64,000 nucleotides of DNA from Escherichia coli (GTDB lineage: Bacteria > Pseudomonadota > Gammaproteobacteria > Enterobacterales > Enterobacteriaceae): assembly GCF_048403405.1 (NCBI RefSeq), contig NZ_CP183129.1; one strand, written 5' to 3'. A model generated the notes under the pieces. The model was given only the letters and a program-made list of their open reading frames with translations. It did no database searches and was not told where the DNA came from. How positions within the stretch are numbered: position 1 is the stretch's first letter; the number at the start of each line of letters is the position of its first letter. Both the position numbers and the translations under genes were made by a program. Shown here piece after piece: positions 16,507-56,132 of the stretch.

Positions 16507-16691
16507 GCATTTCTTTTGTAGGCCGGATAAGGCATTCACGCCGCATCCGGCGCTGTTTGCCTGATGCGACGCTTGCGCGTCTTATCAGGCCTACGATTTC
16601 TGCATTTCTTTTGTAGGCCGGATAAGGCGTTCACGCCGCATCCGGCACTGGTTGCCTGATGCGACGCTTGTGCGTCTTATCAGGCCTGGGT
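16507..16691. repeat. two tandem REP/BIME-type palindromic units (about 95 bp each) between sucA and sdhB
   Basis: Near-identical direct copies beginning GCATTTCTTTTGTAGGCCGGATAAGGC...GCCTGATGCGACGCTTG.GCGTCTTATCAGGCCT at 16507 and 16602. Confidence 0.75.
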
Positions 16692-54783: not shown

Positions 54784-55314
54784 ATGGCTATCACTGGCAT
54801 CTTTTTCGGCAGCGACACCGGTAATACCGAAAATATCGCAAAAATGATTCAAAAACAGCTTGGTAAAGACGTTGCCGATGTCCATGACATTGCAAAAAGC
54901 AGCAAAGAAGATCTGGAAGCATATGACATTCTGCTGCTGGGCATCCCAACCTGGTATTACGGCGAAGCGCAGTGTGACTGGGATGACTTCTTTCCGACTC
55001 TCGAAGAGATTGATTTCAATGGCAAACTGGTTGCGCTGTTTGGTTGTGGTGACCAGGAAGATTACGCTGAATACTTCTGTGACGCATTGGGCACCATCCG
55101 CGACATCATTGAACCGCGCGGTGCAACCATTGTTGGTCACTGGCCAACTGCGGGCTATCATTTCGAAGCATCAAAAGGTCTGGCTGATGACGACCACTTT
55201 GTCGGTCTGGCTATCGACGAAGACCGTCAGCCGGAACTGACCGCTGAACGTGTAGAAAAATGGGTTAAACAGATTTCTGAAGAGTTGCATCTCGACGAAA
55301 TTCTCAATGCCTGA
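54784..55314 (+). CDS. fldA: flavodoxin 1
   Basis: 176 aa from [23 protein letters not shown]. Confidence 0.96.
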
Positions 55315-55332
55315 TGTGATGCGGCGTAGACT

Positions 55333-55354
55333 CATGTCTACGCCGTATTAATAG
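55333..55354 (+). other. stem-loop immediately downstream of fldA
   Basis: GGCGTAGAC-TCAT-GTCTACGCC; no clear T-run, so terminator function is uncertain. Confidence 0.4.
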
Positions 55355-55516
55355 ATAATGCCAATCAAAATAATTGCTACAAATTTGTAACTTTTGCTGT
55401 TGTACCTGTACAATGTCCCGGTGTTCAAGTGGCCTTGCCGTTGTAAATGTAAGCAGTGCCACGTTTTTATTAACAATATTTGCCAGGGACTTGTGGTTTT
55501 CATTTAGGCGTGGCAA

Positions 55517-55535
55517 TTCTATAATGATACGCATT
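55517..55535 (+). promoter_or_regulatory. Fur box (autoregulatory operator) in the fur promoter
   Basis: TATAATGATACGCATTATC, a close match to the GATAATGATAATCATTATC consensus; overlaps the uof start codon. Confidence 0.75.
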
Positions 55536-55610
55536 ATCTCAAGAGCAAATTCTGTCACTTCTCCTAATGAAGTGAACCGCTTAGTAACAGGACAGATTCC
55601 GCATGACTGA
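55524..55610 (+). CDS. uof: fur leader peptide (upstream ORF of fur)
   Basis: 28-aa ORF MIRIISRANSVTSPNEVNRLVTGQIPHD whose stop overlaps the fur start. Confidence 0.75.
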   Translation: MIRIISRANSVTSPNEVNRLVTGQIPHD

Positions 55611-56049
55611 TAACAATACCGCCCTAAAGAAAGCTGGCCTGAAAGTAACGCTTCCTCGCTTGAAAATCCTGGAAGTTCTTCAGGAGCCGGACAACCATCA
55701 CGTCAGTGCGGAAGATTTATACAAACGTCTGATCGATATGGGTGAAGAAATTGGTCTGGCTACGGTATATCGCGTACTGAACCAGTTTGACGACGCTGGT
55801 ATCGTCACCCGCCACAATTTTGAAGGCGGTAAATCCGTATTTGAACTGACACAGCAACATCACCACGATCACCTGATCTGCCTCGACTGCGGCAAGGTAA
55901 TCGAATTTAGTGATGATTCCATCGAAGCGCGTCAGCGTGAAATTGCCGCAAAACATGGCATTCGCCTGACTAACCACAGTCTCTATCTTTACGGTCACTG
56001 TGCCGAAGGCGATTGCCGCGAAGATGAGCACGCGCACGAAGGCAAATAA
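55603..56049 (+). CDS. fur: ferric uptake regulator
   Basis: 148 aa; MTDNNTALKKAGLKVTLPRLKILEVLQ. Confidence 0.97.
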   Translation: MTDNNTALKKAGLKVTLPRLKILEVLQEPDNHHVSAEDLYKRLIDMGEEIGLATVYRVLNQFDDAGIVTRHNFEGGKSVFELTQQHHHDHLICLDCGKVIEFSDDSIEARQREIAAKHGIRLTNHSLYLYGHCAEGDCREDEHAHEGK

Positions 56050-56066
56050 GCCAGCCGGAACGAGAA

Positions 56067-56093
56067 AAGCCAACCTGCGGGTTGGCTTTTTTA
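56067..56093 (+). terminator. intrinsic terminator downstream of fur
   Basis: AAGCCAACC-TGCG-GGTTGGCTT followed by a T-run. Confidence 0.65.
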
Positions 56094-56132
56094 TACACGG
56101 GAAATAAGAAAAGCGAGAGTTACAGCTCTCAC

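Follow-up and report, generated by a model that had tools for sequence, protein, structure and literature searches.

The uof-fur leader of Escherichia coli K-12 is said to be the system of Vecerek, Moll and Blasi (2007). In the annotation of K-12 MG1655, uof is b4637, the "RyhB-regulated fur leader peptide". Translation of fur is coupled to that of the 28-aa uof, and a block of uof initiation by RyhB lowers Fur synthesis (PMC7534054, PMC12683245); a RyhB G44C/C45G mutant fails to repress uof/fur (PMC6191717). The first-pass annotation of the DNA described here had set out this coupling and RyhB targeting for E. coli, and the three papers just cited restate both. Codon 6 of uof, UCA, is decoded by tRNA-Ser that MiaB has methylthiolated, so that the synthesis of Fur is tied to Fe-S status (PMC7466049, PMC11448259), and uof stands among the leader peptides in EcoCyc (PMC7815308). 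The fur promoter Pfur lies within the uof ORF and a separate promoter, Puof, lies upstream of it, with two transcripts on the northern blot (PMC6191717); a Fur box overlaps the -10 of Pfur (PMC7867234), and the placing of the Pfur start sites within uof is taken from secondary sources (PMC6191717, PMC7867234). Read-through transcripts of the operon, fldA-uof-fur and ybfE-fldA-uof-fur, have also been described, and these carry uof (PMC4161252). The thrL and ivbL leaders with GcvB resemble uof in that a small RNA blocks initiation at a short upstream ORF and so lowers downstream expression (PMC7534054), but thrL and ivbL work through transcription attenuation of biosynthetic operons, whereas uof works through translational coupling at an overlapping stop and start.

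The window analysed here, that is, the whole stretch of E. coli DNA, is 64 kb (64,000 nucleotides) long, and we give a probability of roughly 0.93 to the reading that it contains the native regulatory leader of E. coli fur and that this leader works as in K-12. Its basis in the present DNA is sequence identity, anatomy, annotation and comparative retention, and the coupling, the RyhB repression and the MiaB dependence are taken from the literature. The features on which the analysis turns are the following:

54784–55314, plus strand: coding sequence of fldA (flavodoxin 1), from the ORF list and the RefSeq annotation of a 100%-identical locus
55385–55414, plus strand: candidate distal promoter Puof, TTGTAA, 18-nt spacer, TACAAT (9/12 to the sigma-70 consensus in a scan)
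55497–55525, plus strand: proximal fur promoter Pfur, -35 TTTTCA (55497–55502), 17-nt spacer, -10 TATAAT (55520–55525), from a consensus scan
55520–55538, plus strand: Fur box TATAATGATACGCATTATC, 16/19 to the consensus and identical to that of K-12
55524–55610, plus strand: uof leader ORF, 28 codons and TGA, from translation, annotated by RefSeq in identical genomes
55543–55548, plus strand: GAGCAA, candidate RyhB seed complement, a perfect complement of RyhB nt 42–47 (UUGCUC, which includes G44 and C45)
55555–55575, plus strand: small predicted RNA hairpin in uof, UCACUUC, loop UCCUAAU, GAAGUGA (folding prediction with weak energetic support)
55589–55592, plus strand: fur Shine-Dalgarno AGGA, weak at -4.0 kcal/mol with the anti-SD, inside the invariant ACAGGACAGATTCCGCATGAC
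55603–56049, plus strand: fur coding sequence, 148 aa, an ORF whose first 8 nt are shared with the end of uof
56066–56093, plus strand: terminator-like hairpin, AAAAGCCAACC-TGCG-GGTTGGCTTTT and then TT, read from the sequence between the convergent fur and chiQ

The 801 nt from 55300 to 56100 were matched at ≥80% query cover and ≥95% identity in 5424 of 5426 complete E. coli genomes; the fldA-fur region is unmatched in the other two, and one genome carries two copies, one of them on a plasmid record. Beneath the matches the RefSeq annotation reads fldA, "uof: fur leader peptide" and fur, and in genomes with identical DNA it places uof at exactly the ORF found here. The gene order of a 100%-identical genome is ybfF-ybfE-fldA-uof-fur, then chiQ and chiP on the opposite strand, and the same fldA-uof-fur synteny is present in the window, with chiQ/chiP downstream on the minus strand. 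Judged by these matches, the locus is E. coli fldA-uof-fur, an ordinary and already known textbook element.

Alignment of 55300–55660 with the K-12 leader, a check that had been set beforehand, gave 358 identical nucleotides of 361 and so no poor match. The two leaders have in common the fldA-uof-fur-chiQ locus, the 19-bp Fur box, a uof ATG at -79 from fur, the count of 28 codons, the ATGACTGA overlap, Ser6 UCA (TCA at 55539–55541), GAGCAA and the Fur protein itself (148 of 148 residues). They differ at 55455 in the upstream leader (A in this strain, T in K-12), at 55563 in uof (C in this strain, T in K-12, which changes TCT to CCT and makes the substitution S14P) and, synonymously, at 55659 in fur. 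The uof genes are thus identical at 86 of 87 nt and 27 of 28 aa (the K-12 peptide is MIRIISRANSVTSSNEVNRLVTGQIPHD), and on this alignment the S14P uof allele is the sole strain-specific feature of the leader; it does not touch the Fur box, the UCA codon, the seed complement to RyhB or the overlap of stop and start. The exact uof DNA of this strain occurs in 393 of the 5424 complete genomes (7%), and the others that were sampled differ from it by 1–2 nt. The change at 55563 also removes one UCU codon, falls in the loop of the hairpin predicted at 55555–55575 and gives rise to TTCTCC, which is complementary over 6 nt to RyhB nt 21–26.

The uof frame translates as MIRIISRANSVTSPNEVNRLVTGQIPHD followed by the stop, with no frameshift and no internal stop codon. 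Its ATG (55524–55526) lies inside TATAATG, its TGA (55608–55610) lies just past the fur ATG (55603–55605), and the two frames overlap by the 8 nt of ATGACTGA. The first-pass annotation had drawn a 28-codon ORF at 55524–55610 with its stop over the fur ATG at 55603 and had called the arrangement intact; its coordinates are exact, the frame is open throughout and the overlap can be read in the sequence, yet this uof is not identical to that of K-12 (S14P). It had also placed a Fur box at 55517–55535, over the uof ATG. The box is present and the ATG does fall within it, in the TATAATG, but the positions were wrong, since 55517–55535 reads TTCTATAATGATACGCATT and the earlier coordinates are thus 3 nt too low; TATAATGATACGCATTATC lies at 55520–55538, where it departs from the 19-bp consensus GATAATGATAATCATTATC at three positions.

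Given the base composition of this region, an open frame of 28 codons would arise by chance with a probability of about 0.19, and 389 ATG-initiated ORFs of this size are present in the window; uof is taken as real because of its near-identity to the characterised K-12 uof, its RefSeq annotation and its retention across genera. The Shine-Dalgarno sequences of uof (-4.6 kcal/mol) and fur are both weak, each ranking close to the 25th percentile among the window's ATGs, and two weak initiation sites are compatible with a dependence of fur on coupling. The ATGACTGA stop/start overlap is, by its geometry, the arrangement needed for termination-reinitiation coupling, and such coupling is predicted here. 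A terminator scan found no attenuator terminator between uof and fur. The uof frame is also open back to a TTG at 55374, and the in-frame ATG at 55413 lies within TACAATG, at the -10 of the candidate Puof. The 78-aa ORF that results (55374–55610) was considered as the true extent of uof and rejected, as stops close the extension in other genera and also in E. albertii, where the frame is open from -106 onwards only; it is probably incidental.

TTTTCA-17-TATAAT matches the sigma-70 consensus at 10 of 12 positions and is the top match in a 2-kb scan. Its -10 hexamer makes up the first 6 nt of the Fur box, so that the box lies over the core promoter, and as a candidate operator 55520–55538 is placed where bound Fur would occlude RNA polymerase. 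That same hexamer takes in the A of the uof ATG as its fifth base, and transcription from Pfur should begin about 7 nt past it, within uof. With the uof ATG lying within the -10 and transcription starting inside uof, Pfur transcripts would lack the uof start codon, and as a result only transcripts from Puof, PfldA or PybfE would be open to uof-dependent coupling. We infer that Fur repression and uof coupling would act on different transcript populations. The overlap of the box with the ATG is a by-product of TATAATG and makes no mechanistic link between Fur binding and uof translation. TTGTAA-18-TACAAT is the only intergenic promoter candidate whose transcript would include the uof AUG; the existence of Puof upstream of uof comes from the literature (PMC6191717, PMC7867234), and its position at 55385–55414 is one that we infer from the sequence ourselves. 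A coordinate search of the PMC4782308 supplements found no transcription-start coordinates for this locus. Between fldA and the candidate Puof, 9 nt past the fldA stop, lies a perfect 9-bp hairpin (55323–55344, GGCGTAGAC-TCAT-GTCTACGCC) that has no T-run and on which the terminator scan was silent; it could be a partial terminator or a stabiliser between fldA and uof-fur.

For RyhB, we limit the claim of a candidate site to the 6-nt seed complement GAGCAA, which is the same in K-12. The best duplex predicted inside uof (55526–55555) has GAGCAA as its core and an energy of -12.9 kcal/mol, against a window background with a mean of -10 and a standard deviation of 3.8. An alternative duplex upstream of uof, at 55440–55469, is predicted at -17.2 kcal/mol, and duplexes of -17.0 kcal/mol or lower are found in 806 of 18278 tiles of the window, so energy does not discriminate among sites. 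The A at 55455 (T in K-12) strengthens this upstream duplex from -13.4 to -17.2 kcal/mol, which is probably chance. Unrestricted RNAduplex pairing of full-length RyhB with the leader gave meaningless long-loop structures and was dropped; in a published benchmark, the RyhB-uof pairing model was not computationally predictable (PMC3018821). The 64 kb window does not contain ryhB, and at the gathering threshold no Rfam family lies over the fur leader; the only Rfam matches in the window at that threshold are a tandem pair of naRNA4 (RF02564, nucleoid-associated ncRNA/REP-type) at 16521–16591 and 16616–16686, with 79.6 and 86.8 bits.

RNA folding consistently predicts the 7-bp hairpin within uof (55555–55561 with 55569–55575), and global folds are of no unusual stability (z = +0.48 and -0.37, from folds of 55524–55640 and 55421–55640). 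RNAalifold on 33 Enterobacteriaceae leaders keeps a 4-bp core of the hairpin and a 3-bp helix, with a covariation score of -0.12 and one compensatory pair, and when the segment from -66 to -23 is folded sequence by sequence its mean z is -0.66. Nearly every Enterobacterales leader has a hairpin at the equivalent position, about 30–50 nt upstream of fur, and the stems differ (AGGCU/AGCCU in Yersinia, AGGCG/CGCCU in Serratia, GCUCA/UGAGC in Cedecea, GGUACUU/AAGUAUC in Photorhabdus). We regard the uof hairpin as a weak lead from modelling and not as a demonstrated structure. A long-range helix is also predicted between 55495–55514 and fur codons 7–12; its energy is unremarkable and its fur side is constrained by coding. 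The terminator-like hairpin past fur (56066–56093) was missed by the terminator scan, apparently as its T-run pairs into the stem.

For comparison across the order, 120 fur loci were collected by a single DNA-pattern scan anchored on the Fur N-terminus only; nearly all are from Enterobacterales, with a few from Vibrio and Plesiomonas, and 116 (the window counted) have at least 200 nt upstream. TATAATGA is found 50–110 nt upstream of fur in 64 of these 116 loci, and the frame from its ATG runs to the fur ATG in 35 of the 64. A canonical uof (28–30 codons, TGA at fur +6) is present in about 12 genera: Escherichia, most Citrobacter, Enterobacter, Leclercia, Kosakonia, Phytobacter, Pluralibacter, Kluyvera, Pseudocitrobacter, Superficieibacter, Siccibacter and Pseudescherichia. 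The fur leaders of other Enterobacteriaceae (among them Citrobacter, Enterobacter, Leclercia, Kosakonia, Kluyvera and Pluralibacter) share with that of E. coli TATAATGA(G/T)ACGCATTA, at -83 or -86, an ORF of 28–29 codons with its TGA at fur +6, and the ACAGGACAGATTCCGCATGAC block, but the middle of their uof peptide is unrelated to that of E. coli. UCA as the sixth codon is confined to Escherichia, Citrobacter, Pseudescherichia and one Enterobacter, and the other leaders have CCA, TTG, CTC, ACC or others there. Yersinia, Serratia and Pantoea resemble E. coli in having TATAATGAGACGCAA... over the -10, about 85–93 nt upstream of fur, and a fur start of ATGACTGA; in contrast to E. coli, the ATG in their box opens only a 4-codon stub (MRRN or MRRK, then a stop) and there is no uof. 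The stub agrees with the reported absence of uof in Y. enterocolitica, and the position of fldA upstream of fur in Yersinia has been reported as well (PMC7867234).

Several loci depart from these patterns. A 1-nt deletion interrupts the long uof frame in Klebsiella oxytoca and Raoultella terrigena. In both, a 14-codon mini-uORF (ATG at -37, MEVDRLATGQIPHD, then a stop) still ends at a TGA that overlaps the fur start, and coupling there could proceed through this shorter mini-uORF. The ATG of the TATAATG box is in frame with fur, with no stop between, in Buttiauxella agrestis and Enterobacter sp. R1, and a possible consequence is an N-terminal extension of Fur by 22–23 residues (MRRIHLNAHPESERIVKQQDNFR-MTDNN...). 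In Enterobacter sp. Ag1, Cedecea neteri and Mangrovibacter the ORF from the box ATG is in a different frame, and its TGA at fur +2, within ATGA, makes an alternative stop/start overlap. Two Vibrio loci have a 21-codon uORF with its ATG at -55 and its end at fur +9, overlapping the fur start; in one (L085) the ATG is inside a TATAATGAGAACAATTGTA element at -59, and the other (L108) has no intact copy of the element (TATAATGG, peptide MGTIV...). These two uORFs agree with a review statement of similar uORF coupling in V. cholerae.

Could the 28-codon frame be incidental, with uof translation a minor matter in this strain and conservation falling on the promoter and Fur box (5′ end), the small central hairpin and the ribosome-binding region of fur (3′ end)? 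Among 23 distinct intact uofs the entropy at codon positions 1, 2 and 3 is 0.51, 0.54 and 0.58 (1.00, 0.91 and 0.97 in the variable middle, codons 5–17), so these 23 show no third-position excess and no codon periodicity; no P-value is given, since a set of intact ORFs is by its definition a selected one and its lineages lack independence. At its conserved 5′ end uof coincides with the Fur box; at its invariant 3′ end, ACAGGACAGATTCCGCATGAC, it coincides with the ribosome-binding region of fur, where third positions do not vary either. Single-nucleotide indels break the frame in Klebsiella, Raoultella, C. amalonaticus, Citrobacter Awk4 and Enterobacter Bisph1, and the hairpin is kept even in leaders whose uof is frameshifted. 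The chance of about 0.19 for such a frame, the weak uof Shine-Dalgarno and the expected lack of the uof ATG in proximal-promoter transcripts point in the same direction. Against this, the K-12 experiments, on a uof identical but for S14P, found coupling and RyhB control of uof initiation (PMC7534054, PMC6191717, PMC12683245), and EcoCyc counts uof as a leader peptide (PMC7815308). Moreover, in the roughly 12 genera with a canonical uof the frame stays open and in register (TGA at +6) despite heavy divergence, its 28- and 29-codon forms differing by exactly one codon, a 3-nt indel; and a lack of codon periodicity is what would be expected if the act of translation matters and the peptide does not. 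We consider an incidental frame very improbable. From the pattern as a whole we conclude that the Uof peptide is not conserved and appears not to be under selection and that, where the element is kept, what is kept is a frame that stays open and in register with the start of fur; a length difference of exactly one codon fits a coupling device, and the broken frames show that it is dispensable in some lineages.

A similar question attaches to the Fur box, which might be no more than a strong -10 in AT-rich surroundings, similar to the consensus by chance and unbound by Fur. TATAAT itself supplies six of the 16 matching positions, and TATAATGA is conserved even where the downstream half departs from the consensus (Serratia and Yersinia, 7–8 mismatches). 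The 3′ half CGCATTATC, however, matches the consensus at 7 of 9 positions, and the full 19-mer is found at 3–4 mismatches in Escherichia, Citrobacter, Enterobacter, Leclercia, Kosakonia and others. Across the whole window 55520–55538 is the sole match with three mismatches or fewer on either strand, against a mean of 0.02 expected from shuffling (any match in 1 of 100 shuffles). The K-12 sequence, which is identical, is the published fur operator according to PMC7867234, which cites de Lorenzo 1988 for it. A chance likeness is in our estimation hardly credible, and less probable still than an incidental uof frame.

Returning to a native fur leader that works as in K-12, its operation in this strain would be as follows. 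At the DNA level, Fe2+-Fur would bind the 19-bp operator at 55520–55538, cover the -10 of Pfur and weakly repress its own gene. At the RNA level, transcripts initiated further upstream (from Puof, PfldA or PybfE) would contain the uof AUG at 55524, and ribosomes would translate the 28 uof codons and terminate at the UGA at 55608–55610, inside AUGACUGA. Termination there would deliver ribosomes to the weak fur initiation site, or unmask it, which would constitute the translational coupling. Under iron limitation, repression of RyhB by Fur would be lifted, and the derepressed RyhB, pairing near the uof start (GAGCAA, 55543–55548), would block uof initiation and lower Fur synthesis. The MiaB-modified tRNA that reads Ser6 UCA would provide a second iron-dependent input.

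A wider joint reading of these observations, which we offer tentatively and think rather doubtful, is that selection may act not on the Uof peptide but on three other things, namely a frame of about 28 codons kept open in register with fur, the Fur box that overlies the -10, and the recurrent hairpin. In this joint reading the coupling would be evolutionarily labile, replaced by the 14-codon mini-uORF in Klebsiella/Raoultella and lost or re-framed elsewhere, and the S14P allele, which 7% of E. coli genomes carry, could shift iron-responsive decoding a little.

The value of the analysis is chiefly annotation quality control, in that the predicted Fur circuit of this strain appears intact (Fur box, uof overlap, RyhB core and MiaB codon) and the known model is unchanged. 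Its by-products, namely a leader peptide apparently without selection, an ORF broken in Klebsiella and some Citrobacter, and a positionally conserved hairpin, may perhaps be useful for understanding Fur/RyhB circuitry outside E. coli.
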